Assembly (NCBI GenBank): GCA_963796455.1
Contig: CAWCLO010000001.1
Location: 928,001-992,000, forward strand
Origin: Candidatus Sulfomarinibacteraceae bacterium
GTDB lineage: Bacteria > Acidobacteriota > Thermoanaerobaculia > Thermoanaerobaculales > Sulfomarinibacteraceae
Direction: 5' to 3'
DNA: 64,000 nucleotides
The position numbers and the translations under genes are program-made. Positions 3,690 to 62,649 of the stretch are shown here, in pieces. The notes under the pieces are model-generated. The model did not search any database, was not told the DNA's origin, and saw only the letters and a program-made list of their open reading frames with translations. Positions within the stretch are counted from its first letter, which is position 1. Each line of letters starts with the position of its first letter.

Positions 3690-3975
3690 GCTATCGCTAT
3701 CGGAATCGCTATCAATATCGAACGGCTGCTGTGGATACCGTTCCTGAAAGGGAGAAAGGGAGAAAAGGAGAAAGGGGGAACCATCGATCACGGATATTTC
3801 CTGCACGCGAAAATCGCCTCCCGATGTCATCCTGAGCGGAGCCCGCCCTGGGGCGTAGTCGAAGGATCTATGAGATGGACCGCAGAGACCCGTGAGCCGC
3901 AGATCCTTCGACTCGGCCGTCGGACGGCCTCGCTCAGGATGACATATTGAACGACAGTTCCGATCCCGATCCCGT
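3690..3975 (+). repeat. Composite intergenic element: ATCGCT hexamers, GGGAGAAA octamers, paired TGTCATCCTGAGCG palindrome, CCGATC hexamers
   Basis: Homologous in inverted orientation to 48690-48976. Confidence 0.85.
3824..3945. repeat. Paired palindromic element ATGTCATCCTGAGCG...AGTCGAAGGATCT / AGATCCTTCGACT...CGCTCAGGATGACAT
   Basis: Two inverted ~45-bp arms, each with an internal hairpin. Confidence 0.9.
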
Positions 3976-48373: not shown

Positions 48374-48450
48374 GGATTAGGATATTTCCAATTTCGAATT
48401 TCGGATTTCGAATTTCGGATTTCGGATTTCGGATTTCGGATTTCGGATTT
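48374..48450 (+). repeat. Heptamer array ATTTCG(G/A)
   Basis: Starts at the ABC-F stop codon. Confidence 0.9.
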
Positions 48451-48468
48451 TCGCCAACCCATCACATA

Positions 48469-48563
48469 AGAAACCGCAGATCACGCAGATGACATGAGGC
48501 CGTCCCGGCACTGGCCGATTGTCATCCTGAGCGACGGAGCTTCGCGACCGAGTCGAAGGATCT
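48469..48563 (+). repeat. Second copy of the CGCAGAT/TGTCATCCTGAGCG module
   Basis: 32-bp and 44-bp blocks identical to 4874-4905 and 4934-4977. Confidence 0.9.
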
Positions 48564-48689
48564 GCGCGGATAAGGAATCGCTTTCGATGTGGCGGCGATT
48601 CCGACCCGGCTGGGAGCAATCCGTATCTCCCTTTCCCCCCTGCTCCCTTTCTCCCCCCCCCCCCTTCGCCATTGGTCCGCCCAATTTCG

Positions 48690-48976
48690 GAATCGGGATC
48701 GGGATCGGAACTGTCGTTCAAGATGTCATCCTGAGCGAAGCGCCTGTGGCGCGGAGTCGAAGGATCTGCGGCCTTGGGTCTCTCCCGTGTGCGCCATAGA
48801 TCCTTCGACTACGCCTCTGCGGGGCTGCGCTCAGGATGACATCGGGAGGCGCCATTCGTGTGCTGGGAAAATCCGTAACCTGTGGTTCCCCCTTTCGGGA
48901 AAGCGTGCGAATCGCGAGTGGGGTAAGAAAGATGGACCATTGGTTGCCCATCGATAGCGATTCCGATAGCGATAGC
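48690..48976 (-). repeat. Inverted copy of composite element 3690-3975, with the paired palindrome at 48723-48842
   Basis: Manual alignment of the reverse complement. Confidence 0.85.
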
Positions 48977-49030
48977 AAGAGGAAGCCGAGCCGCCCCTCA
49001 GCCCCCGTGCCCCTCTACCATCCTGGTTCG

Positions 49031-49094: not shown

Positions 49095-50354
49095 TTATGA
49101 ACGTCGCACGGCGTGCATGGTGAATCCATCGCCGTCGGGGTTGGGCAGGATTCGGCAACCTCCAGTCGGGGTCGGGATCCACGGTGCGCCTTCGGGCATC
49201 GCCGCAGAGAGATTCTCGATCGCGAAACCCTCGGACAACCTGGAGACGACACCCTCATTCTCCTCTGGCTCGACCGAACAGGTCGAGTAGAGCAGAACCC
49301 CACCCGGCGCGACGAGCCCGAGCGCGGATTCAAAGAGCGCCCTCTGTTTGACGGCCATCTCTTGCACCGACTCCGGGCGCAAACGCCACTTGAGCTCCGG
49401 GTGGCGGCGAAAGGTCCCGCTCCCGGAACAGGGCGCATCGAGGAGAACCAGATCCCAGGATTCGGGCGCAAAGGGCGGTTGCATTGCGTCCGCCACCACC
49501 ACCGATTGCCCGGCCCAGCTCTCGAGAGTCCGCGCCATCATTCGCACCCTTTGAGGTGACACATCGGCCGCAACCCGCAGAGTGCCAAGGTCATTTTTCG
49601 CCATCAAAGCGGACTTCCCGCCAGGTGCGGCACAGAGGTCGATCACCCGGCCGGCCGTTCCCGTCAAACTCCCGGCGATATGCGCCACCAGCTGCGAACT
49701 CGGATCCTGGGCATAGGCTCTGCGCGCCGCAACCACCTGGACGAGATCCGCCGCTTTGCCCGGGGCCGTCCAGCAATCCGGCATCCAGGGGTGCGCTTCG
49801 AGTTCCACCCCATCCGCGGCGAGGGCCCGCCGGCCGTCATCATCGAGGAACCACACCCAGGTGACGGCCCCTTCCTGGGATGCCGCCATCGACTCCTTCG
49901 CTGGGCCGGAATCGAAGTTTTCGAGCCACCGTTGATAGAGCCACCCTGGATGGGAAAGCCGAATATCGATCGATGAGCTCTCGAGTATTTCGGGCCAACC
50001 GGCGGCCGCCTTGCGGAGGATCGCGTTGACCATCCCCGCAGCGGAGGATCGGCCAAGGCGGCGGGCCAGGCGAACGGCACCATCGGTGGCAAGCGCCGGA
50101 GGAACGTCCAGACGCATTACCTCGACCAGACCCAGGCGCAGGACCACCCGGACTTCCGGATCGAGTTTCTCGAGGTCCTTTCGACACCACTGCTGAAGCA
50201 CCACATCCAGGGCGCGCAGACAGCGGAGAACTTCGAGCACCCGAATCCTGACTGCCGGTGGTGAACCGCCGGCCATCAACCGGGAGGAGAAGGCCCCACC
50301 CTCGACCCGCAGCAGAAGGCGCGCGGCCGTCAGGCGATCAGCCGAAAGCCTCAC
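49095..50354 (-). CDS. rsmB: 16S rRNA m5C967 methyltransferase RsmB/Sun
   Basis: NusB-like N-terminus; QD.SS, DLCAAPGGKS, LDAPCSGSG, YSTCS...ENE; directly follows fmt. Confidence 0.9.
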   Translation of the reverse strand: MRLSADRLTAARLLLRVEGGAFSSRLMAGGSPPAVRIRVLEVLRCLRALDVVLQQWCRKDLEKLDPEVRVVLRLGLVEVMRLDVPPALATDGAVRLARRLGRSSAAGMVNAILRKAAAGWPEILESSSIDIRLSHPGWLYQRWLENFDSGPAKESMAASQEGAVTWVWFLDDDGRRALAADGVELEAHPWMPDCWTAPGKAADLVQVVAARRAYAQDPSSQLVAHIAGSLTGTAGRVIDLCAAPGGKSALMAKNDLGTLRVAADVSPQRVRMMARTLESWAGQSVVVADAMQPPFAPESWDLVLLDAPCSGSGTFRRHPELKWRLRPESVQEMAVKQRALFESALGLVAPGGVLLYSTCSVEPEENEGVVSRLSEGFAIENLSAAMPEGAPWIPTPTGGCRILPNPDGDGFTMHAVRRS

Positions 50355-51276
50355 CCGAGCTCACTCGCTCGCCGATCAGAAACGCATCCGCCGGCATCCG
50401 GCGACGGCCCTCGCGCTGCATCTCCGTGATCTTGGCAGCCGAACCGCGACCGCAGCGGACCACGATGCCATCCCCTTCGGCGATGAGGACGACTCCCGGT
50501 TCTTCTGAGCCCGGCGGTGGAGGTTTGACCTCCTCGAGACCGAAAATCTTCATTCGGCCGCCACGAAACTTGGTGTAGAGACCGGGCCAAGGCGAAAACC
50601 CCCGCAGACGATTCACCAGTTGACGCGCCGGCATCGTCCAATCCACTTTGGCGAAGTTGCGTCGCAACATCGGAGTCGTGTTGGATCCATCGGCGGGCTG
50701 CGGGCGAGGCGTCACCGTGCCCTCCTCGAGGGCGTCGAGAGTCTTCACGATCAACCGGGCACCGATCTCCGCCAGACGAGGACTCAGCATCTCGGCTGTT
50801 TCTTCATCCTCGATCGTGACCCGTTCCTGGAGAAGGAGCGGTCCGGTGTCCATTCCTTCATCGACCTGCATCGTCGTGACCCCGGTCGCCCGGTCGCCAC
50901 AAACGAGTGCCCACTGAATAGGTGACGGTCCCCTGTGGCGCGGCAACAGACTTGGGTGGAGGTTGACGAACCCATGTTCGAGGAGGGTGAGGAGCCGAGC
51001 GGGTATCAGCTTGCCGTAGGCCACCACCACAGCCACGTCGGCGCCGATTTCCGCCAGAGAATCGTCGATCTCCTTTGATTTGAGCGTCTTCGGCTGCACG
51101 ATTGGTATCTCGCGGTCTTGTACGAGTTCGACCACGGGGGGTGAAGACAGTACCTGGCGGCGCCCGACGGGTCGATCGGGCCGGGATACGACGAGCACGA
51201 CCTCGTGCCGGCTTTCGATCAACCGCTCGAGGGTCGGTACGGCGAATTCAGGGGTTCCAAAAAAGACGACCTTCAT
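50338..51276 (-). CDS. fmt: Methionyl-tRNA formyltransferase
   Basis: FFGTPEFAVP, VVAYG, NLHPSLLPRHRG..PIQ, GMDTG. Confidence 0.96.
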   Translation of the reverse strand: MKVVFFGTPEFAVPTLERLIESRHEVVLVVSRPDRPVGRRQVLSSPPVVELVQDREIPIVQPKTLKSKEIDDSLAEIGADVAVVVAYGKLIPARLLTLLEHGFVNLHPSLLPRHRGPSPIQWALVCGDRATGVTTMQVDEGMDTGPLLLQERVTIEDEETAEMLSPRLAEIGARLIVKTLDALEEGTVTPRPQPADGSNTTPMLRRNFAKVDWTMPARQLVNRLRGFSPWPGLYTKFRGGRMKIFGLEEVKPPPPGSEEPGVVLIAEGDGIVVRCGRGSAAKITEMQREGRRRMPADAFLIGERVSSGEAFG

Positions 51277-51358
51277 CCGCGCAGTGTACACGAAGATTCG
51301 GTCTCAATTCACTGTCAAGATCGGATCCTGTCAGGGCGATGTCCCGCAGGTTATGCAG

Positions 51359-51691
51359 GATCACTCTTGTCCCAGACAGAGTCTCGGATAGCGTGCAGGG
51401 ACAGCGCCAGAGAACGGTCGACAGCGTCAGCGAACTGGAGTCAGGGGCAGTGTTCAGCTATCAGCACTCAATTCGTCGGGTTCAAGAGCCGCAAGATAAT
51501 GGCCCGAACCTGATCGAAGGTGTTCATCGCCTCACGGGCGCCCGCCCACCGGCCACCCCGTTCCGTTGCACAACCCGGAGGTGGTGGCCACGCCGCCACC
51601 TGGACTCCTGAACGCTGCCGCCGATCGCTGCAAACTGATCGCTGACCGTTGTTCCCTGTCGCTGATCACTGTCGCTGCCGCTGCAATTCGG
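51359..51691. repeat. Foldback element: GACAGC-type hexamer arm, core, CGCTGT-type arm
   Basis: Inverted homolog of 61100-61396 with shared ends and core. Confidence 0.8.
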
Positions 51692-51860
51692 ACGCGGACG
51701 AGGACGCGGGCACGGGGCAACGGCGAACCGAATATGCCCAAAACCAACCCGTAAACCCCGTGTTGTCAATCGGGCAACTTCAGATCACGATCTGTTTTGG
51801 ACAGCACTGATACAGGAAGATAGTCGATTCACCTGACGGCTTGCCACTGGTCGAGTGCGA

Positions 51861-51896
51861 TGAATCCTGAATCCTGAGTCCTGTGGCCTGAATCCC
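51861..51896 (+). repeat. Heptamer array TGAATCC
   Basis: Read directly from the sequence. Confidence 0.75.
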
Positions 51897-51972
51897 GTTA
51901 CCGGGCGGGTTGGAAATAACTGAGAACTCATATACATTCCACTGTTCTGAGTAGATTGAACGGAGTGTGCTC

Positions 51973-54597
51973 ATGACAACCATGTCGCCGGAAGAGATCC
52001 GCGCGAAGCTCGATGACATATTGCCGGGGGTCCAGAAACCGACCCGCTATCTCGGCATCGAACGAAATCTGGTCCGCAAACCCTGGCAGTCGGTCAAGGT
52101 GCGAGTCGCCCTTGCCTTTCCAGATGCCTACGAGATCGGCATGTCCCATCAGGGGACTCGGGTGCTGTACCACCTCGTCAATCGACGTGACGACGCACTG
52201 GCCGAGCGGACCTTCGCCCCGATGCCGGACATGGCGGAAGCCCTGCGCAGCAACGATGTGCCCCTCTTCTCACTGGAAACCTATCAACCAGTTGGCGCAT
52301 TCGATATGGTCGGGATCTCGCTTCAGTCAGAGCTCAACTACATCAACATCCCGTACATGCTCGATCTTGCGCGGATCACGAGAAGGGCCTCGGACCGGGG
52401 TCACAATGAGCCCTTCGTCATCGGCGGTGGGCCCTGTACAGCCAACCCGGAACCAGTTGCCGACTTTTTCGATGCCATCCTGATCGGCGATGGAGAAGCG
52501 GCCCTCGACGACATCCTCGACACCATCGGCGACGGCCGCGCCGCCGGTTCCTCCAGGCTCGAGATCCTGAAGCGATTGGCCGCCATCCGTGGGGTCTATG
52601 TCCCAACCTTCTACAAATGGACGCCGGCAGAGGGCGACAAGCCTGCAACCTGGCAGACCCAGGACGCGCAAGCAGTTTTTCCGGTCGAGCGCGTCTGGGT
52701 GAAAGAACTCGATCCTGACAGCCAACCCGAATCGGTGATCGTTCCGTTTGCCGACGTGATCCAGGATCGTATCGGGATGGAAATCATGCGGGGCTGCACC
52801 CAGGGGTGCCGGTTCTGCCAGGCGGGTTACTGGTATCGACCGGTTCGCGAACACGACCCCGAAATGGTGCTCGAACGAATCCAGAAACAGGTTGCTGACA
52901 CCGGCTTCGAACAGGTTGGGCTACTCAGTCTCTCGACCGCCGACTACTCGCAGGTGGAACCGCTGGTATATCGCCTGTCGGAAGAACTGCAGGATCGCCG
53001 GGTCTCCGTGAGCCTGCCATCGCTCCGCGCCGATGCGTTCTCCGTCGGCCTTGCCGAGGCCGTTTCCCGGGTCCGCAAATCCGGTTTCACTTTCGCACCC
53101 GAAACCGGGTCCGATCGACTGCGGCGGGTCATCAACAAGACCTTCACCAACGCCGACATGGTGCAGGCTGCCGAGGCGGCGTTCTCGAAGGGCTGGAACC
53201 TCATCAAGGTCTACGCGATGATCGGGCTGCCCACCGAAACCGATGACGACCTCGAAGAGCTTGCCCGTTTGACCGAAGACATCCTCGAGGCCGCGCGTCG
53301 GTCCGGCAGAGGACGCAAGGTGCAGGTCAAGGTGTCGGTTGGCTGTTTCATCCCCAAGTCGTGGACGCCTTTTCAGTGGCAACCTTTTACCGGTGTTGGA
53401 GAACTCGAGCGCCGGATCCATCTCCTCAAGAACCGCTTCAAGAGGATTCGCGGCGCTCGCCTGACGTGGTCGGAACCGAGAGAAGCGGCTCTCGAGTCGC
53501 TGCTCTCGCGCGGCGGCCGAAATCTGTCCGAGACCATCGAACGAGCGCACGACCTCGGTGCCGTGTTCGACGGTTGGAATGATCTCCTCGACCTCGACGC
53601 CTGGCGCACAGCAATTGATGAGACCGGGGTCGATATGGAAACCGAACTGGGCGAGAGACAGCTCGGCGACACACTGCCCTGGGACGTCATCGACGCCGGC
53701 GTGCGCAAGGGTTATCTCAAGGCCGAATGGCGCCGCGCGCTCAAAGAGGACCAGACCGAAGACTGCAAGTGGGGCCACTGCTATCGCTGTGGGATTCCGG
53801 GCGACGGCGAAGACACCCAGCTCGCCCCGGCATCGCTGCCGGTGATTGGCGACGTTCTTCCCGAGGAGGACCAACCAAAGGCGGCAGCTTACCGCCTGCG
53901 GCCCGAGCCCCGCATCCCGCCACCGGACAAAAGCCGCGCCCAACCGCCGGTCTTTCGCCGCTTTCGCTTCACCTTCACCAAGACCGGCGACGCGAGATGG
54001 TTGTCTCACCGACAGATCATGGATGCCCTCGAACGGATTCTCCGCGCGGCCGAGATCCCGGTCCGATATACCGAAGGATTCAACCCCCATATCCGCCTAT
54101 CCATGGGCCCGGCCCTTTCGGTTGGTCACGAGGGTGAAGCAGAGATCTTCGACGTGGACTGCACCGCCCCGGTGCGCCCTCAGCACATCGAGCAGGCCAA
54201 CCGGCTCCTGCCTGACGGCGTCAAAATCACTGCTGTCCAGGCCTTGTTGCCCGGTGCCCCGTCACTCGGGAAGCTGATCGCAGCGGCCCGGTATCGGATA
54301 TCGGCGCCGCGCATCGACGATCGAAGCTGGCCAGCCTCGAGTGAAGGCCTTGCCGATGATCTGGGTTCAGGGGTCGGGAGCTGGGCCCTGCTCGAGGACG
54401 GCAGTCTTCGAGTCGAACTCAATGCCCGGCAAGAGGACGGCCCGACGGTTTCGGTCAAAAAGCTCCTTCTCGGTCTCGGACTCGACGAGGATGAATCCAT
54501 CCGGACAACGGTTGCCCGTGAAGGGCTGGTGCTCAGACCGCGAACCAAAAAAACAAAGCCTGCCGCAACGGAGACGACCGGGACGGTTCACCCGTGA
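51973..54597 (+). CDS. B12-binding-type radical SAM protein (TIGR03960-like) fused to a radical SAM-linked DUF2344-type domain
   Basis: VQKPTRYLG.E, FPDAYEIGMS, RGCTQGCRFC; C-terminal F.K.G..R..SH...YTEGFNPH. Confidence 0.9.
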   Translation: MTTMSPEEIRAKLDDILPGVQKPTRYLGIERNLVRKPWQSVKVRVALAFPDAYEIGMSHQGTRVLYHLVNRRDDALAERTFAPMPDMAEALRSNDVPLFSLETYQPVGAFDMVGISLQSELNYINIPYMLDLARITRRASDRGHNEPFVIGGGPCTANPEPVADFFDAILIGDGEAALDDILDTIGDGRAAGSSRLEILKRLAAIRGVYVPTFYKWTPAEGDKPATWQTQDAQAVFPVERVWVKELDPDSQPESVIVPFADVIQDRIGMEIMRGCTQGCRFCQAGYWYRPVREHDPEMVLERIQKQVADTGFEQVGLLSLSTADYSQVEPLVYRLSEELQDRRVSVSLPSLRADAFSVGLAEAVSRVRKSGFTFAPETGSDRLRRVINKTFTNADMVQAAEAAFSKGWNLIKVYAMIGLPTETDDDLEELARLTEDILEAARRSGRGRKVQVKVSVGCFIPKSWTPFQWQPFTGVGELERRIHLLKNRFKRIRGARLTWSEPREAALESLLSRGGRNLSETIERAHDLGAVFDGWNDLLDLDAWRTAIDETGVDMETELGERQLGDTLPWDVIDAGVRKGYLKAEWRRALKEDQTEDCKWGHCYRCGIPGDGEDTQLAPASLPVIGDVLPEEDQPKAAAYRLRPEPRIPPPDKSRAQPPVFRRFRFTFTKTGDARWLSHRQIMDALERILRAAEIPVRYTEGFNPHIRLSMGPALSVGHEGEAEIFDVDCTAPVRPQHIEQANRLLPDGVKITAVQALLPGAPSLGKLIAAARYRISAPRIDDRSWPASSEGLADDLGSGVGSWALLEDGSLRVELNARQEDGPTVSVKKLLLGLGLDEDESIRTTVAREGLVLRPRTKKTKPAATETTGTVHP

Positions 54598-54974
54598 GGG
54601 CACGATGGGTCATTCACTCGCGTTCGAATTTCAACGCGCACCACGCCCTGACCATTTACCTGGGCCAAGCGGAAGCCTCCCACAGTCACGAGTGGCAGGT
54701 CGAGGTACAGGTCGGCACGGATCGCCTCAACGACGAGGGATATGCGCTCGATTTCCACGCGGTACATCGGATTCTCAAAGATGCGGTGGCTCCCCTCGAG
54801 GACATGGACCTCAACCAACACCCTGAGATCGGCAAGCCGACACCCTCGGCCGAGCGGGTGGCCGAGGTGCTCGCCGGCCACCTGGCGCCGAAGTTCGAAG
54901 AGATCGGGGGCCGTCTCATTTCAGTGAGTGTGTGGGAGGGACCGGAGAACCGGGTTGATCTCAACCTCGGTTGA
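54594..54974 (+). CDS. 6-pyruvoyl-tetrahydropterin synthase / QueD family protein
   Basis: FNAHH, HSH, DFH, LN, PSAE, VWE; no catalytic Cys. Confidence 0.85.
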   Translation: MRARWVIHSRSNFNAHHALTIYLGQAEASHSHEWQVEVQVGTDRLNDEGYALDFHAVHRILKDAVAPLEDMDLNQHPEIGKPTPSAERVAEVLAGHLAPKFEEIGGRLISVSVWEGPENRVDLNLG

Positions 54975-54993
54975 CACGGGACGCAACGGGGTT

Positions 54994-55073
54994 GGGCTAT
55001 GGGGCTATGCGCTATGGGGCTATGGGGCTATGCGCTACTTAGGGGCTATGGGGCTATGGGGCTATGGGGCTAT
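54994..55073 (+). repeat. Tandem array (GGGGCTAT)n, about 10 units
   Basis: Read directly from the sequence. Confidence 0.92.
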
Positions 55074-55100
55074 TGAGCAATCGGTGTTCGTTGGCAGGAG

Positions 55101-55457
55101 TCAATAGGACCTGCGCTTCTGAATGAATGAGGCAAGAGCGGCCGCCGTTCTGCCTTGCGATTCGCGCAGCTTTTCTGATTTCCCATCGGCCAAATATCCC
55201 AGCCTGTGAGAAAGGTCGATCAGGTACCCCAATTCCCGGACCGATCCAAATGCGATATCGAGAAAACGGTCGAATTCGGTTTCAGTCCTTCGGCCACAAC
55301 CTTCTACAATATTTGCGGCGACAGAGACGGAGCACCGTCTCATCTGGCTGACCAATCCATAGAGTTCGTCCTGTGGATAACTTTTTGTCGCTTGGTAAAC
55401 GAGAATCACCAGATCATCTGCCAACCGATAAACATCAAGCTTTCGATGGTCTCTCAA
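55101..55457 (-). CDS. Four helix bundle protein (23S rRNA-IVP / Avd-like family)
   Basis: RDHRKLDVY, YPQDELYGLVSQMRR.SVSVAANIVEG, FLDIAFGS..E, LGY. Confidence 0.92.
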   Translation of the reverse strand: MRDHRKLDVYRLADDLVILVYQATKSYPQDELYGLVSQMRRCSVSVAANIVEGCGRRTETEFDRFLDIAFGSVRELGYLIDLSHRLGYLADGKSEKLRESQGRTAAALASFIQKRRSY

Positions 55458-55494
55458 AGCGTTCTCACTTTAGATCGGAGGCTCCAAACCCGTG

Positions 55495-55531
55495 ATCGCC
55501 ATAGCCTTATAGCCCCACAGCCTCATAGCCT
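55495..55531 (-). repeat. Inverted partner array (ATAGCC(C/T)N units)
   Basis: Reverse complement of the 54994-55073 unit; abuts the upstream gene's stop codon. Confidence 0.85.
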
Positions 55532-57546
55532 CATTGCCCATTCACCGCCTGCGCTACCAACTCGATGACATCGTAGGTCGTCGCGTCCTCATGCCCCATT
55601 TCGTTCTGGGCATCGGAGAGCATCGAGTAGCAGTAGGGGCATGCGACTGCCGTGTCCTTCGTTCCGGTGGCCTCGAGCTGGGCGAACCGGGTCTGGTTGA
55701 TGCGCTCTCCGATGCTTTCCTCGAGCCACATCCGACCGCCGCCGGCGCCGCAGCACATCGAGGTTTCACGACTGAGTTCGGCCTCCCGTACATTGACGCC
55801 CGGAATCGCGTTGAGGAGGAATCGCGGCGCGTCGTATTCGCCGTTGGTGCGGCCGAGATAACAGGGATCGTGATAAGCCACGTCGACATCGACCGTCGCG
55901 GTGAGCTTCACCTTGCCCGACCGTACGAGATCGGCGACGAGTTGGGTGCCGTGGACGACTTCGTACTCTCCGCCGAACTCGGGATACTCGTGCGCCAAGG
56001 TATTGAAGGCGTGCGGGCAATTGGTGACGATTTTCTTGACGCCATAGCCGTTCATGGTCTCGATGTTTTGCTGCGCCAGCATCTGGAAGAGGTATTCGTT
56101 GCCGAGCCGGCGCGCCGCGTCGCCGGTCGAGACCTCCTCGGGACCGAGGATGGCGATCTTGACACCGGCGGTCTGGAGAATCTTGACCATCGCCTGCGAG
56201 ACCTTTTTGCCGTGATCGTCGTAGCTTCCGGGCGACCCGACAAAAAACAGATATTCGAAATCGCCCGCGGCCTCCGCAGCAAGCGGGACACCGAGATCTG
56301 AGGCCCAGTTGCCGCGTTCTTCCGCCGGCAGCTGCCACGGGTTGCCGTTGACCTCGTAGCCGCGGAAGGCAGGTTGGGCTTCGTCGGGGAACTCCGCTTT
56401 CTCGAGCACCAGGTTCCGCCGCAACTCCACCAGCTTGTCGACGTAGCTGATATCGAGGGGACACGCCCGTTCGCACCAGCGGCAGGTGGTGCAAGCCCAG
56501 ATGACCTCGGGATCAACGACCACCGGCACCAGTTGATGTTCGGATCGGTGATCCGCTTCTCCGGGCGAACCGAGAATGTCCTGCTGCTCGGCATAGAGTT
56601 GATCTCGCACGCTCTTCAGAAAAAGCACCGGCTGCAGCGGTTTGTGGGTGAGGGTGGTCGGACAATACTCCCGGCAGCGTCCGCACTCGGTACAGGTGTA
56701 CATATCGAGCATCTGCTTCCAGGTGAAGTCGGTCACCGTCGAGATACCGAACGTGGTGTTGTCGTCGATGTTCTCGAGATCCATGCTCGGCAATTTGCCG
56801 GGAGCATCGAGATTGGCGAAAAAGACGTTGAATATCGAGGTGTAGACGTGGAAGTGCTTGGAGTACGGCAGTTCGTTGGCAAAGGCGAACAGGGTGATGA
56901 GGTGGACCCACCAGCTGAAGCCGTAGATGAATTGGAGCTTCGCCGCGCTGAGACCTGAAAAGGCGCCCGCTACGAGACTCGAGATCGGAAGATAGGAGCC
57001 CTCGAGCTCACCGGCCGCAATGCGCGCGCCCTCCGATGTCAGGTCGGTGATCATGAGGATGGCGATAAAACCAATCACCAACCAGGCGCCCCAGCTCTGA
57101 ATCACGCGCTCCTTCTTCTGGATGCCCCGTCGCCAGATGGCGAAAGCGAGACCGACCAATACCAGCAACTCGAATATGTCCTTGGAGAACAAATAGGCGT
57201 GGCCCACCGGCGAATCGAGGAGCGGCAGTTCCCAACCCGCAAAAAGGCCCTCGAGGACCATGGTCACCGTGCGCACGCTGACCACCAGGAAACCGTAGAA
57301 GATCAGCAGGTGATAGAAACCGGCCAGCTTGTCGTCAAACATCTTCCTCTGACCGAAGGCGTAGACCATCATGTGTTTGAATCGCTCACCTATACGGTCG
57401 AAACGATTGTCCGCCCGGCCGCTCCTGAGAAGCTGAATCCGCCGGCTCAGCGAAAAGATGACTGCGCCGACACCGAAAATCGTGAGAATCCAGAACCAAA
57501 CAACCCCGGAAATCCCCAGAAACGACCCAGCGGTGGCGTGATGCAT
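55531..57546 (-). CDS. Membrane-bound Fe-S oxidoreductase (FadF/HdrF-like)
   Basis: TM N-terminus; CTECGRC...CP, CTTCRWC...CP; CCG domain (HDPCYLGR, CCGAGGG). Confidence 0.9.
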   Translation of the reverse strand: MHHATAGSFLGISGVVWFWILTIFGVGAVIFSLSRRIQLLRSGRADNRFDRIGERFKHMMVYAFGQRKMFDDKLAGFYHLLIFYGFLVVSVRTVTMVLEGLFAGWELPLLDSPVGHAYLFSKDIFELLVLVGLAFAIWRRGIQKKERVIQSWGAWLVIGFIAILMITDLTSEGARIAAGELEGSYLPISSLVAGAFSGLSAAKLQFIYGFSWWVHLITLFAFANELPYSKHFHVYTSIFNVFFANLDAPGKLPSMDLENIDDNTTFGISTVTDFTWKQMLDMYTCTECGRCREYCPTTLTHKPLQPVLFLKSVRDQLYAEQQDILGSPGEADHRSEHQLVPVVVDPEVIWACTTCRWCERACPLDISYVDKLVELRRNLVLEKAEFPDEAQPAFRGYEVNGNPWQLPAEERGNWASDLGVPLAAEAAGDFEYLFFVGSPGSYDDHGKKVSQAMVKILQTAGVKIAILGPEEVSTGDAARRLGNEYLFQMLAQQNIETMNGYGVKKIVTNCPHAFNTLAHEYPEFGGEYEVVHGTQLVADLVRSGKVKLTATVDVDVAYHDPCYLGRTNGEYDAPRFLLNAIPGVNVREAELSRETSMCCGAGGGRMWLEESIGERINQTRFAQLEATGTKDTAVACPYCYSMLSDAQNEMGHEDATTYDVIELVAQAVNGQ

Positions 57547-57625
57547 GACCCCTCCTTCAATTCGGGCGGTTCAACCCGTGCACGAGCAGCACCGATCACG
57601 GGCGAGTATAGCGGGGAGACATGAA

Positions 57626-57667
57626 AATTAGGATTTAGGATTTAGGATTTAGGAATTCAGATTTCGG
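57626..57667 (+). repeat. Heptamer array ATTTAGG
   Basis: Read directly from the sequence. Confidence 0.85.
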
Positions 57668-57742
57668 GCCACAAACGACCGGCGAATGCGTAACCCGGCA
57701 GCAGATGTCGAGCACAGCCACGATGAGAGATCAGGGCATGAT

Positions 57743-58771
57743 TCAGACTGAGAGAGCGGCAACCAGTTTTTCGAGGAGGGACGAGGTCGGGACCTCCGGG
57801 TCCTCCGGATCGATCCAACGCCATGCCTCTGAGGGGGGCTCCAGCACGCCGATATCAAATCGGACCGGGATGACATCAATCTTCCGGTGGGTGATGTTGT
57901 GGCGAACCGGGGCGCCGACGACGCCGTTCGAAGCGGCGGTTTCGGGCAGGAGGTCGCGGGCAGTAGCAGCCGGATCGTCACGATCCCCGATTTCGGTGAA
58001 GGGTGGCAGCCAGAGACCCCTGAGTATCGGACCGTCGTCCACCCTGCGGAGCAACCACAATCCGCCACGGTTGACACAACAGGCTGCCGCCCAGCGGAGC
58101 GCGATCGTGGCCCGCCGGCGACGGGGCGGCGGGTAGGCTTCCTGTTGCCCACCCGCACGCGCTCGACATTTTGACTGCAGCGGACATCGATCGCAGCCCG
58201 GATCGGTTGGTGTGCAGACGGTGGCGCCGAGCTCCATCAGCGCCTCGTTGACCTCGCCCGGCGGCAACCCTTCCTGCATGGATGCGACCCATCCACCGAG
58301 ATGGCGCCGTCCGCCCGCCGATCGCGGGTCGAGATCGAGTGCCTCGACCCGCGCAGCCACGCGCATGACATTGCCATCAAGGACCGGCACCTGTTCGCCA
58401 AATGCCAACGATGCCACCGCAGCCGCAGTATAGGGACCGATTCCAGGAAGCTTCTGGAGCTCGGCGGCAGTCCGCGGGAAATCGCCCCCGACCCCCGATA
58501 ACTCCCGAGCCATTTGATGCAACAGGCGAGCACGCCGGTAGTAGCCGAGGCCTGACCAGGAGGCAAGGACCTCCTCCTCGCTGGCCGACGCGAGTTCCGC
58601 AATTGAGGGAAAACGATCTATAAACGCTTCAAAACGGGGCACGACCCGGTCGACCTGGGTCTGCTGGAGCATGAACTCGCTGACCACTACATGGTAGGGA
58701 TTCCGGGGTTCGGCCCGCCAGGGTAAGCAGCGGGCATTGGTGCGGTACCAGGTCAGAAGCTTTTGGTTCAT
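57743..58771 (-). CDS. mutY: A/G-specific adenine glycosylase
   Basis: LPWR, SEFMLQQTQV, WSGLGYYRRAR, LPGIGPYTA, DGNV, Fe-S cysteines. Confidence 0.95.
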   Translation of the reverse strand: MNQKLLTWYRTNARCLPWRAEPRNPYHVVVSEFMLQQTQVDRVVPRFEAFIDRFPSIAELASASEEEVLASWSGLGYYRRARLLHQMARELSGVGGDFPRTAAELQKLPGIGPYTAAAVASLAFGEQVPVLDGNVMRVAARVEALDLDPRSAGGRRHLGGWVASMQEGLPPGEVNEALMELGATVCTPTDPGCDRCPLQSKCRARAGGQQEAYPPPRRRRATIALRWAAACCVNRGGLWLLRRVDDGPILRGLWLPPFTEIGDRDDPAATARDLLPETAASNGVVGAPVRHNITHRKIDVIPVRFDIGVLEPPSEAWRWIDPEDPEVPTSSLLEKLVAALSV

Positions 58772-58862
58772 CAACCCCGCCATCCTACCCGGACCGGGCC
58801 TCCGCGCTATAATGCGCCACAGATCGCCACGTAACAAACCTGTCTGGGAGGGCAAAACATCC

Positions 58863-59423
58863 ATGGGAGTCGACCGGAAAGCCGAGGACGAGCGCCTGAT
58901 CGAGCTCATGATCGGCTATCAGAAAGGCAGCATGGATGATTTCGAGGGCTTGTACGCCGCTCTCAAACAACCCCTCGTCCGGTATCTCTGGACCTTTGTG
59001 CGCAACGCGACGATGGCCGAGGACCTCCTGCAGGACACATTTCTCCAGATCCATCGCGCACGACAGACCTACACACCAAGACGACCCGTACGGCCGTGGA
59101 TCTATGCGATCACCAGGCATGTGGCCTTGATGCACCTGAGGTCAGGCCGCCGCCGCAAGGAAATGTTGGCGAATGACGAGTTGCCCGAGGTCCCGGTGCC
59201 GCCGGAAGTGGAAAGTCTCGCGGATCGGGCGACTCTGCAAAAAATGTTGTCAGAACTTCCGAAACCAGCCCAGGAGGTCCTGACCTTGCACCATCTGTTG
59301 GGTATGAGCTTTCAGGAGGTGGGCGAGATTCTCGGGATTGCGCCGGGCACCGCCAAGGTGCGCGCTCACCGGGCGCTCAAGAGCATACGGGCGAGACTCG
59401 ACAAACAGGGAGGCAGCGCGTGA
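58863..59423 (+). CDS. ECF RNA polymerase sigma factor
   Basis: AEDLLQDTFL, WIYAI, region 4 HTH GTAKVRAHRA. Confidence 0.92.
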   Translation: MGVDRKAEDERLIELMIGYQKGSMDDFEGLYAALKQPLVRYLWTFVRNATMAEDLLQDTFLQIHRARQTYTPRRPVRPWIYAITRHVALMHLRSGRRRKEMLANDELPEVPVPPEVESLADRATLQKMLSELPKPAQEVLTLHHLLGMSFQEVGEILGIAPGTAKVRAHRALKSIRARLDKQGGSA

Positions 59424-60109
59424 ATAGCGAACTCGTTCCGGAGTCCCTGCGCAGCTCCATCGCAGAGGATCTCCAGCTTGTCAGGCCACTGCCTCCGGCA
59501 TGGATGCGGACCCTGGAGGCGGCAGCGGTCGCGGCGCTGGGTCTGGCCGCGGTTGTCGTGTTCTTCCACCTCCAGATTCGACCGGACATGGATCAACTCC
59601 CGATGTGGTTGGGCTGGGGATGCACGGTGGTCCAGATTGGTATCGGCATCCTTTTGGTCGGCATGGCGATGCGCGAAGCGGTGCCGGGTCTCGGTGTTCC
59701 CAAGGGTGCCATCATCCTCGCCCTCGGTACCGCGGTCCTGATGCAACTCCTGGTGGCCGTCGTTACCTGGATGTACAGCCCCGGAATGCCGCTGACAGAA
59801 GAGATCTTCGTGAAAACCGGCATGTCCTGCGCGAGCCACGACACCTCGATGGCGTTGCCGGCATTGGCGGTGACCCTCTGGTTGGTCTTCAGAGCCTTGC
59901 CGCTGCGTCCTTCCATCGCGGGTCTGCTCGGTGGGGCCGGCGCCGCAGTCACCGCCGATGCGATGACCCACGTCCTGTGCCCAATGTCCGATCTGCGGCA
60001 CGTGCTTGTCTGGCATACCGGCGCCCTGCTCGGTCTGATGCTGATCGGATGGATCGTCGGCAAGGTTTGGGAGTGGAAGCGGTTTGGATCAGGCGCCGCG
60101 TCGGATTGA
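59420..60109 (+). CDS. NrsF/DUF1109-like membrane anti-sigma factor
   Basis: Six TM segments, conserved Cys, CP......LVWH; overlaps the sigma gene stop. Confidence 0.8.
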   Translation: MNSELVPESLRSSIAEDLQLVRPLPPAWMRTLEAAAVAALGLAAVVVFFHLQIRPDMDQLPMWLGWGCTVVQIGIGILLVGMAMREAVPGLGVPKGAIILALGTAVLMQLLVAVVTWMYSPGMPLTEEIFVKTGMSCASHDTSMALPALAVTLWLVFRALPLRPSIAGLLGGAGAAVTADAMTHVLCPMSDLRHVLVWHTGALLGLMLIGWIVGKVWEWKRFGSGAASD

Positions 60110-60121
60110 TTCGAAGAAACC

Positions 60122-60240
60122 GAGTTCGAAATTCGGAGTTCGGAGTTCGGAGTTCCGTGCATCCAACCACGCGGTGACACCCAAGATCATTCGAGAAATG
60201 GCCGAAAATTCCGAATTCCGAATTCATCATTCCGAATTCG
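60122..60240. repeat. Inverted heptamer arrays (AGTTCGG ... CCGAATT) around a ~45-bp core
   Basis: Read directly from the sequence. Confidence 0.8.
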
Positions 60241-60317
60241 ACCGTTCGCGCTGCTGCTTGACAACCCGGCTCATTGAGTTCACAGTTTGCGCCGGATGAT
60301 GTTCCCTGGAGGATCCC

Positions 60318-60839
60318 ATGAGTCACGACATTGATTTCAGTACCCTTTCGCTCCGCGACACCCTCGACCTCGCCGTATCGGTGGAGGAAGAAGCCAAGGA
60401 GCGCTATGACGATTTCGCCGAGCAGATGGATGCGCACCGGACGCCTGAGGCCGCGAAGTTTTTCCGCTTCATGGCGGACAACGAGATCAAGCATGCCGAG
60501 AAGTTGAGCGCCCGGCGCAAGGAACTCTTTGGCGACGCACCGAGCACGGCCGACACATCGATGATTTATGACATCGAGGCTCCGGAGTTTGATGCCGCGC
60601 GCGCGTTCATGTCCATTCGCGCCGCCCTCGATGTCGCGATGGAGTCCGAGGTCAAGGCCTATGAATTCTACGACCAGGCGCTGCCGACCATCGAAGACCG
60701 TGAAGTCAAAAAGCTCTTCATCGAGCTCCGAGACGAAGAAATGCGTCATCAGGAGATGATCACCGAAACGATGGCCAAGGTTCCCGAGGGCGACGGCTTC
60801 GACCCCGACGATTTCGTGGACGGTCCGGCCGCTCAATAG
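60318..60839 (+). CDS. Ferritin/rubrerythrin-like protein
   Basis: E..A..Y, EIKH, E..A..FY, EMRH diiron ligands. Confidence 0.9.
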   Translation: MSHDIDFSTLSLRDTLDLAVSVEEEAKERYDDFAEQMDAHRTPEAAKFFRFMADNEIKHAEKLSARRKELFGDAPSTADTSMIYDIEAPEFDAARAFMSIRAALDVAMESEVKAYEFYDQALPTIEDREVKKLFIELRDEEMRHQEMITETMAKVPEGDGFDPDDFVDGPAAQ

Positions 60840-60902
60840 CTCGAAGCGCACCAGAAAAAATCTCGGAAAACCGCGGAGTATCCAGGGGCCGGATACGGTC
60901 TG

Positions 60903-61005
60903 AGAAACCGCAGATCACGCAGATGACATGAGGCGGTGCCGACCGTGGCTACACCGCCTCATGTCATCCTGAGCGAGGGAGTTTCGCGACCGAGTCGAAG
61001 GATCT
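60903..61005 (+). repeat. Third copy of the CGCAGAT/TGTCATCCTGAGCG module, with a perfect 17-bp stem
   Basis: 60922-60938 pairs with 60952-60968. Confidence 0.9.
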
Positions 61006-61099
61006 ACGCAGATAAGGAATCGCTACCGTCATCGTGTCGCTATCGCTATCGAAAAGCGAAAACTCCGAGGTCTATTCAATGGCGGTCCCGATCCCGATC

Positions 61100-61396
61100 C
61101 CGAATTGCAGCGGCAGCGACAGTGTTCAGCGTCAGCGACAGGCAACAGCGAACAGGGACAGCGACAGAGAACAGCGATCAGTGTTCAGCGGCAGCGGCAG
61201 CGATCAGGTCCGTGCCATGACCTGGCGGCTGTTGAACCCAAAAATTAACGTACCGTTCCCTGACGCTGACGCTGCTCGCCGACGCTGGTTCCTGTCGCTG
61301 TCGCCGACTCCTGTTCGCTGACGCTGTACACTGATCGCTGTTCCCTGTCTCTGACGCTGATCGCTGTCTAAGACCCTGTCTTGGACAAGAGTGATC
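61100..61396. repeat. Foldback hexamer element (homolog of 51359-51691)
   Basis: GACAGC-type left arm and CGCTGT-type right arm. Confidence 0.8.
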
Positions 61397-61565
61397 GAGT
61401 ATCGAGTATCGAGTATCGAGCGAATGGTCTCCCTTTCCCCATGCTCCTCTGCCGATGGTTGACGCGCCAAAAATCCGAAATCCGAAATCCGAAATTGATC
61501 TCCCCTTCCCCCTTTCTCCCCTTCCCCCTTTCTCCCTTTCTCCCTTTCTCCCTTTCTCCTCTTCT
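61394..61565 (+). repeat. Stacked arrays ATCGAGT, AAATCCG, TCTCCCTT
   Basis: Read directly from the sequence. Confidence 0.85.
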
Positions 61566-61626
61566 ACCCGGCACCCGTTCTCACAATTGATGAACCCGCA
61601 AGGTCGTTGCGGTTACACTTGAAGGG

Positions 61627-62649
61627 ATGCCTTATTCCCCCGAGCCCGCCGCCGTTTCTGATCCGCCGCCAGCGGGTGTCCTGCTCGTCAACACCGGGTC
61701 ACCGGTCGAAGCAAAAGCGGCAGCGGCACGAGAGTACCTCCGTCAATTCCTTACCGATCCGAGGGTCGTCGAACTGCCCCGCCTCCGATGGTGGTTGCTG
61801 CGAAACCTGATCATCCTCCCCTTCAGGCCCTATCGGACGGCCCGCGCCTACCGCCGAATATGGACCGAGGACGGTTCGCCTCTCGTCGCCACCGGGCGCC
61901 ACCAGGCCGCCGACCTCGAGTGGCAGCTCGGGCAGAGAATCGACCGGCCTGTGCCCGTCTTTACAGGGATGCGCTATGGGAAACCTTCCATAGCCGCGGC
62001 GCTCGGCGTTCTTCGGCGTCGCGGCTGCCGGAGAATTCTCGTGCTCCCCCTCTTTCCGCAGTATTCGGCGACCACCACCGCTTCCGCCTACGACGAGGTA
62101 TTTCGCGAACTTTCGGCTTGGCGGCGGGTTCCCGAACTGCGGACAGTCGGCGACTATCACGACCACCCCGCCTATATCGGTTCGGTGATTTCGAGTATTT
62201 ACGATTTTTGGAAGGACAAAGGCAAACCGCAACGCCTCTTGATCAGCTTCCACGGTCTACCGGTTCGTTATATTGAAAACGGCGACCCTTACGAGGACCA
62301 CTGTCGTGCGACAGCGGCTATCATTTCTTCCCGGCTCGATTTTGATAACAATCGCGTCGAAACCGTCTTCCAGTCTCGCTTTGGCCGCGAGGCGTGGATC
62401 GAACCCTACCTCACCGACGTCCTCCGCCGCTCGGGACGCGAAAGACTGTCGACCCTGGACGTGGTCTGTCCCGGTTTTGCCGCCGACTGTCTGGAGACCC
62501 TCGAGGAGATCGATGTGGCCGGCCGCAAGATCTTCACGAAGGCCGGCGGCGAAGAGCTTCGCTACATCCCCGCACTCGGCCGCCGCCCCGATCACATCAG
62601 TGCGCTGGCCGAGGTGGCGATCGAGCATCTCGGTGGGTGGATCGTCTAA
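61627..62649 (+). CDS. hemH: Ferrochelatase
   Basis: GVLLVNTGSP, YLRQFLTDPRV, GSPL, MRYGKP, PLFPQYS, SFHGLP, FQSRFG, DCLETLEE. Confidence 0.96.
   Translation: MPYSPEPAAVSDPPPAGVLLVNTGSPVEAKAAAAREYLRQFLTDPRVVELPRLRWWLLRNLIILPFRPYRTARAYRRIWTEDGSPLVATGRHQAADLEWQLGQRIDRPVPVFTGMRYGKPSIAAALGVLRRRGCRRILVLPLFPQYSATTTASAYDEVFRELSAWRRVPELRTVGDYHDHPAYIGSVISSIYDFWKDKGKPQRLLISFHGLPVRYIENGDPYEDHCRATAAIISSRLDFDNNRVETVFQSRFGREAWIEPYLTDVLRRSGRERLSTLDVVCPGFAADCLETLEEIDVAGRKIFTKAGGEELRYIPALGRRPDHISALAEVAIEHLGGWIV

Follow-up and report, generated by a model that had tools for sequence, protein, structure and literature searches.

When a protein gene lies between two inverted arrays of one short tandem word, does it propagate together with its repeats, does it ride passively on repeats that spread by other means, or did it arrive as the cargo of an ordinary transposable element? 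We addressed this question for a four-helix-bundle gene in a window of 64,000 nucleotides (the whole stretch of DNA analysed) from the genome of a Candidatus Sulfomarinibacteraceae bacterium (G000; assembly 90.5% complete), together with congener genomes (labelled G0nn; 25 genomes in the genus comparison). An earlier, sequence-only reading had described the unit as a candidate gene-bearing member of a repeat-bounded cassette system.

The left arm of the cassette (54994-55073, plus strand) consists of about 10 tandem GGGGCTAT 8-mers with variants (Tandem Repeats Finder: period 8, 9.9 copies, 81% matches) and is the 3' hairpin arm on the gene's strand, and the right arm (55500-55538, minus strand) consists of about five copies of G(A/G)GGCTAT (period 8, 4.9 copies of the reverse-complement word) and is the 5' hairpin arm. 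The enclosed PF05635/TIGR02436 gene (55101-55457, minus strand) is an intact 118-aa ORF with a TTG start and a product pI of about 9; its GC content is 50.1-50.3% versus 60.4% for the window, within the lowest 0.9% of 354-nt windows of the genome. This is the arrangement that the sequence-only reading had described, a left array of about ten units, an AT-rich 118-aa gene and a right array of about five, except that the right array, placed at 55495-55531 by that reading, extends a few bases further and overlaps the stop codon (55531-55533) of the neighbouring gene. The location between the stops of two convergent genes was likewise borne out. A PTPS/QueD-like host gene (PF01242; 54594-54974, plus strand) flanks the cassette and ends at 54974, leaving 19 non-repeat bases before the left arm; on the other side, a membrane CCG/4Fe-4S oxidoreductase host gene of 671 aa (55531-57546, minus strand), which we take to be fadF-like, ends at 55531 and has the same orientation as the enclosed gene. 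The PTPS start is overlapped by a gene (51967-54597 of the window) for a TIGR03960 radical SAM protein fused to a DUF2344/TIGR03936 domain. Contigs from other public runs matched parts of the cassette with 0-2 differences, so the cassette is not an assembly artefact; one public run contained a +7 nt length variant of the left arm. The inner 422 bp of the cassette is single-copy in the genome.

The protein passed the curated cut-offs of PF05635 (E 3e-30; 104.9 bits versus 33.8) and TIGR02436 (E 3e-29; 101.3 bits versus 24) over most of each model and thus belongs to this family. By sequence it matched Xcc0516 (E 5e-21), and its structure model (pLDDT 96.5, four helices) superimposed on Xcc0516 (2GSC) with a TM of 0.93 and an rmsd of 1.1, followed by BT_0352 and then by Avd of diversity-generating retroelements (DGRs; 4DWL: TM 0.78, E 0.024, 10% identity). 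The links to the proteins of rRNA intervening sequences and to Avd drawn by the sequence-only reading therefore stood. Xcc0516, which has five chains in 2GSC, is described as a homopentamer (PMC4990558), and by homology we assumed the same for the focal protein. Genes of the focal clade showed a pN of 0.16-0.22 and a pS of about 0.8, with saturated synonymous sites, and the focal protein and the neighbouring PTPS protein are conserved to the same degree; judged by these substitution rates, the focal protein is under purifying selection.

We then asked whether the arms belong to the family or to this locus. Among 60 related loci, 55 were scored by an alignment test of complementarity (two weak matches and three short-flank loci were dropped), and the inverted flanks exceeded the 99th percentile of 150 control pairs in 50 of them, spread over many phyla, compared with 5 of 55 in direct orientation. 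A strict tandem test gave inverted arms in 22 of 60 homologues, direct arms in one and none in 56 controls; it reads low because the arms are degenerate, and the alignment test replaced it. Arm scores of at least 30 were also found in 38 of 40 further congener genes (the top-ranked genes outside family A, an amplified lineage described below), and 9 of 11 family-A loci scored below 30. Thus, the inverted-arm layout is family-wide. The sequence-only reading would have the flanks of four-helix-bundle genes carry inverted arrays in general, and this agrees both with the homologues and with G000 itself, where all four singleton genes have inverted arms, each with its own word. Furthermore, the word family tracked the protein clade in a tree of 66 rows and 117 columns: hexamers (support 96), GATG-type words (100), AATT-type words (99) and GGC-type 7/8-mers including the focal gene (99). 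Given 117 columns and shared descent, this agreement shows co-inheritance, not co-evolution.

The arm words are not confined to the cassettes. G000 contains 1306 arrays with a period of 6-9, which form 156 inverted versus 64 direct pairs (orientation-flip control, 110 +/- 8), and only 19 of the 156 inverted pairs enclose a four-helix-bundle gene. Polarity is nearly fixed for each word (12:0, 17:1, 9:0 and 7:0, with 6:0 for the focal class), and that of gene-less pairs is the polarity of the gene-bearing cassette with the same word. The window holds an inverted 7-mer pair of this kind at 2515-2758 (GGCTATA/GGCTGTG ... TTATAGC, same polarity, spacer of about 110 bp), and another gene-less inverted pair, of GAGTTCG/AATTCCG heptamers, at 60122-60239 (spacer of about 50 bp). 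Across the genus, (GGCTATGR)n was almost confined to G000 (42 matches, 20 loci) and G014 (24 matches, 17 loci): G034 had one match and the remaining 22 genomes had none. Intact arms of this word occur in the same two genomes, G000 and G014, which are not sisters (AU p 0.017 for a group named after the tree had been seen). A prediction made beforehand for GGCARTGR, the arm word of G032, was borne out: G032 itself had 111 matches, its two nearest relatives had 36 and 30, and no other genome had more than 4. As predictors, the arm words of G031 and G004 succeeded partially for the former and failed for the latter (4 of 5 matches were its own cassette), and the G031/G004 word is common in G006, G007 and G015, where the focal-clade gene was not found. 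The G008 arms are degenerate, with no clear match to the word of that genome, and the GGGGCTT 7-mer was non-discriminating: 22 of 25 genomes have it, both those with and those without a match to its gene. Many words are also abundant in G000 with no cognate gene in its 90.5% complete assembly.

Orthologous sites connected the two forms more directly. At one junction, presumably cpoB-rpsT, four congeners carry a focal-clade cassette, and G000 and G016 carry gene-less inverted arms, each in its own genome's word. At other sites occupied in relatives, G000 has an arm on its own, a pair of arms with no gene, a clean junction of 59 bp or a GxxExxY-type gene; candidate G000 sites were mapped for 20 of 48 loci, several of them doubtful, and only clear cases were relied on. 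No remnant of the focal gene was detected in 100 gene-less spacers (HMM, with a reversed-sequence control) or genome-wide (blastn), the best remnant-like matches being family A. With word, polarity and sites all shared, the kinship with gene-less inverted arrays that the sequence-only reading had suggested was upheld, and we read the cassette arms and the dispersed arrays as one exchanging population, in which sequence may flow either way.

Several other units were observed among these arrays. Inverted GGCTAT-type arrays enclose a whole host gene, presumably tlyA-like (G000:C8:10481-11440), and upstream of this gene a congener carries the word of its own genome. Three genes that we take from their motif to be GxxExxY-type (G000:C1:453927-454337, C1:750110-750504 and C1:748282-748795) lie between inverted 8-9-mer arrays, one of them at a site with a four-helix-bundle cassette in three congeners. 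A short GC-rich palindrome recurs in or beside focal-class arms (G000:C1:553382, C1:690873, C10:547635 and C8:140304; L316, L317, L320 and L321) and resembles a small element inserting into arrays. A composite palindromic multi-copy family of about 0.8 kb contains several word arrays and no clear gene (G000:C4:284744-285953 and 35 related segments), and REP-like palindromes starting GTCATCCTGAGCG are nested among word arrays at 3826-3943, 48400-48980 and 60936-61030 of the window.

The history of the focal cassette was addressed at its own junction. The convergent PTPS/fadF-like junction was readable in 14 of 25 genomes of the genus and held the focal cassette in four of them (G000, G014, G008 and G032); the other ten carried different repeats or genes, or short arrays with a different word. 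The absence from 10 of 14 readable junctions is what the sequence-only reading had pointed to as a check on mobility. In the remaining 11 genomes, the fadF-like gene was flipped (four), a family-A cassette followed the PTPS end (G017), the neighbour was another gene (one), a contig end cut the junction (three) or no match was found (two). The flipped state belongs to one clade of four congeners (L004, L005, L006 and L016), with AATTCCT-type arrays at the junction; in the window, an array at 57628-57654 lies on the far side of the fadF-like gene. The four same-site carriers were rejected as a clade (AU p 3e-5) on a local rSAM-PTPS tree, which was used because the rpoB tree lacked two of the carriers and had one row in the wrong frame. 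The G014 copy has an in-frame TAG, and the G008 copy a frameshift that may be an assembly error, the neighbouring gene being frameshifted too. Sharing the site did not bring copies closer together (65-71% identity at the same site, 68-70% at other sites), and genes of the focal clade are found at six sites across the genus. Taken together, the patchy occupancy, the TAG copy, these identities, the saturated synonymous sites and the low pN indicate that the cassette is old and dispensable at this junction and that its protein is selected; the junction data are explained equally well by an ancestral cassette that was lost repeatedly and by one that was gained repeatedly. The proposal of a mobile or self-propagating cassette was thus not supported for this copy, which is single-copy, old at its junction and without remnants in gene-less spacers.

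The predicted fold agreed with the idea, also put forward from the sequence alone, that the arrays fold back and loop out the gene. The 571-nt strand was predicted to fold with its arms paired around the ORF at -212 kcal/mol (z -4.05; none of 100 shuffles as good), and the arm duplex alone at -71.9 as RNA and -37.9 as DNA. A promoter scan of 54900-55700 found no promoter-like site, and the right arm overlaps the stop of the fadF-like gene; thus, read-through from this gene is the probable source of RNA for the cassette. One RNA run gave near-identical contigs only over 54932-55422 within 11.9 kb, at a depth of about 4, and these were not counted as expression because the run had been picked up using this stretch, and DNA may be present in it. 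Among six public runs (all assembled contigs, low depth), no joint that skipped or inverted the cassette was seen. Rfam found no rRNA family in 50000-62000, its only match being a sub-threshold microRNA-like hairpin at 61148-61364.

The closest known counterparts are the ORF-bearing intervening sequences of 23S rRNA in Coxiella and Leptospira, which share the protein family (S23p/PF05635) and an ORF looped from a terminal stem, predicted in our case. Variable numbers of tandem heptamers in the 5' stem region and excision by RNase III are described for them (PMC4990558). In contrast, the focal cassette lies between protein genes with no rRNA gene, both of its arms consist wholly of tandem words, its word is common to dozens of gene-less arrays, and its protein is under purifying selection instead of decaying. 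A table in PMC5524665 includes four-helix-bundle genes, and the available part of that paper does not mention repeats; in literature that covered few subscription journals, no description of repeat-armed four-helix-bundle cassettes outside rRNA was found. We concluded that the cassette is a variant of the ORF-bearing intervening sequence and not a member of that class, real, family-wide and apparently undescribed in print.

Thus, we proposed that the focal cassette is likely the gene-carrying form of the short-repeat hairpins of this genome, and that it was likely moved and rewritten by recombination between arms and not by a transposase of its own. In the complete form of this proposal, to which we give an even chance, an intervening-sequence-like hairpin cassette lives in mRNA space, exchanges sequence arm to arm and encodes a protein that favours copying of the hairpin or word to which it belongs. 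Transcription running on from the upstream gene would produce the RNA, the arms would pair into a stem of about 40 bp with the ORF looped out, and RNase III would be expected to cut the stem, by analogy with the intervening sequences of 23S rRNA (PMC4990558); with the cassette placed at a stop codon, the host genes would be spared. Within a word family, arrays would exchange sequence genome-wide, so that the cassette could enter, leave or be swapped at a gene-less pair with no target duplication, and loss of the gene would leave a gene-less pair or a solo arm. The basic, Avd-like protein would bind the hairpin or word of its own cassette, either as RNA or as single-stranded DNA, and favour its copying, and for this reason would stay under selection. 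A bolder version is possible but doubtful: every four-helix-bundle lineage would serve a selfish system that needs no transposase, as the dedicated factor that recognises its own 6-9-base word and drives hairpin cassettes and word arrays to be copied around the chromosome. The short-repeat arrays of many bacteria would then be the traces left by this system, from which rRNA intervening sequences and DGR Avd would have branched off.

Short-word repeats comparable to these arrays are the cyanobacterial STRR. Heptamer arrays of Xanthomonas and Nostoc are intergenic, G-rich and close behind stop codons, with 70 inverted pairs in one Xanthomonas genome (PMC4692102), and G000 resembles them in its dispersed intergenic words of 6-9 nt, often inverted and behind stop codons. 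However, the available part of that report links its arrays to no enclosed gene or mobile element, whereas here many word families coexist and each has a corresponding four-helix-bundle clade in the genus. Such arrays raise the possibility that the cassette is a passive passenger, with repeats that spread and homogenise by slippage and host recombination, a protein whose role is at the level of the host, and arms that are the packaging of its arrival. The arrays do far outnumber the genes and exist in the absence of a cognate gene, the cassette is old at its site with a protein conserved like the PTPS neighbour, heptamer pairs in Xanthomonas keep their positions between species (PMC4692102), and the arms at C8:10481-11440 enclose an ordinary host gene. 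Nevertheless, we consider this explanation rather unlikely: inverted arms in about nine-tenths of homologues, the fixed polarity, the selection on redundant family-A copies described below, and the absence of the gene from 10 of 14 junctions with a TAG stop in one carrier would all be left unexplained.

A different explanation, which we regard as quite improbable for the focal cassette, is that it came as cargo inside a non-autonomous insertion sequence derivative whose terminal repeats have since eroded. Its model is family A, which accounts for 66 of the 70 PF05635 matches in G000. The family-A element occupies 204 loci (66 with the gene, 25 partial and 113 without the gene), mostly inside heptamer arrays, (GATGCTG)n, and has terminal inverted repeats, CA-starting ends and a 9-bp target duplication (at least 8 of 9 positions in 13 of 23 paired copies; permutation mean 3.6); of 11 paired copies that lack the gene, 7 have one and the same palindromic insert in its place. 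The window contains an internally deleted copy with IS4-type ends (51362-51809, minus strand) and a remnant (61108-61393, plus strand) with CAGCGA-type arms, the final codons of the gene and a single terminal repeat. The same ends bound elements of 1.4-1.5 kb encoding an IS4 transposase in 1 of 25 genomes of the genus, and no autonomous IS4 partner with these ends was found in G000. Non-autonomous passenger elements of the IS4 family are known as mobile insertion cassettes, and family A qualifies as one: it has IS4-type ends, a duplication within the expected 8-10 bp, a passenger gene and, elsewhere in the genus, an autonomous partner with the same ends that encodes the transposase. Its CA-starting ends and 9-bp duplication are features of the IS4 family (PMC2266710). 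In other congeners, the family-A gene also resides in another non-autonomous element, which has ends of the form GG...CC and duplications of 8 bp and is inserted in (AACGTTCT)n arrays (L079-L085, L089). In view of the IS4-type ends and target duplications, the expansion of family A is most likely ordinary transposition in trans, and copy number alone is no proof of self-propagation, since capture by elements derived from insertion sequences can amplify such genes.

The focal cassette, however, differs from these elements. No terminal repeat or target duplication was visible by eye at it or at its 11 close homologues, no family-A end pattern matched at its locus, and its arms begin at host stop codons; the family-A ends carry other cargo in two congeners and thus are not specific to four-helix-bundle genes. 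Classification as an IS or MITE was rejected, the cassette showing neither unique terminal inverted repeats or target duplication nor near-identical copies. The earlier statement that there is no recognisable transposase does not fit the expansion of the amplified lineage, with its IS4-type ends. Nor is G000 free of transposases: a profile search for DDE_Tnp_1, this family only, found one gene with unrelated ends, and self-comparison gave repeats that we take to be three IS91-like and two Y1/RAYT-like (including C6:37094 and C4:1143372). The DDE_Tnp_1 gene adjoins a frameshifted IS110-like gene (G000:C7:291107-293858, L019). Among 58 intact family-A copies, pN/pS was 0.19 (0.13 for alleles in at least three copies versus 0.54 for singletons); the protein is still selected, unlike the prediction for purely passive cargo. 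The 135-nt family-A leader upstream of the start codon is highly conserved (mean difference 0.067 versus 0.28 at synonymous sites; L070, G000:C7:250500-251800) and has nested stems, the outer covering the ribosome-binding site and the inner appearing to covary in congeners, a candidate structured RNA.

DGR Avd (4DWL, 8UB7), as described in PMC10053308 and PMC12875486, resembles the focal protein in its fold and basic character and in an mRNA that borders structured RNA, but the focal locus, with PTPS and CCG/Fe-S neighbours, has no DGR context, and the assembly has no RVT_1 match. Retro-copying, in which the Avd-like protein loads the hairpin RNA, once excised, onto a reverse transcriptase whose gene lies elsewhere, with integration of the cDNA at arrays, is very improbable even with the fold match to Avd of DGR reverse transcriptase complexes, the requirement of Avd for retrohoming (PMC12875486) and family-A copies that are fine-scale mosaics whose linkage fades within 30-60 nt, because no RVT_1 match was found in 14 of the 25 congeneric genomes compared (among them 6 of the 10 that have a focal-clade gene), identity to Avd is 10%, and an informal look saw no template/variable repeat pair near the gene.

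Returning to the proposed hairpin cassette rewritten by arm recombination, we note what it would mean for the family. Structures of PF05635 proteins have been solved since 2006 and no function has been assigned, and dispersed arrays of 6-9 bases have been described with no origin. This locus and its genus tie the orphan family to the short-repeat arrays by evidence that can be counted: the word of the arms is also that of the genome at large and the two change together, and one junction alternates between gene-bearing and gene-less arms. Word-matched arms thereby offer a direct experiment, the protein against its own and foreign words, with natural variant pairs at hand.
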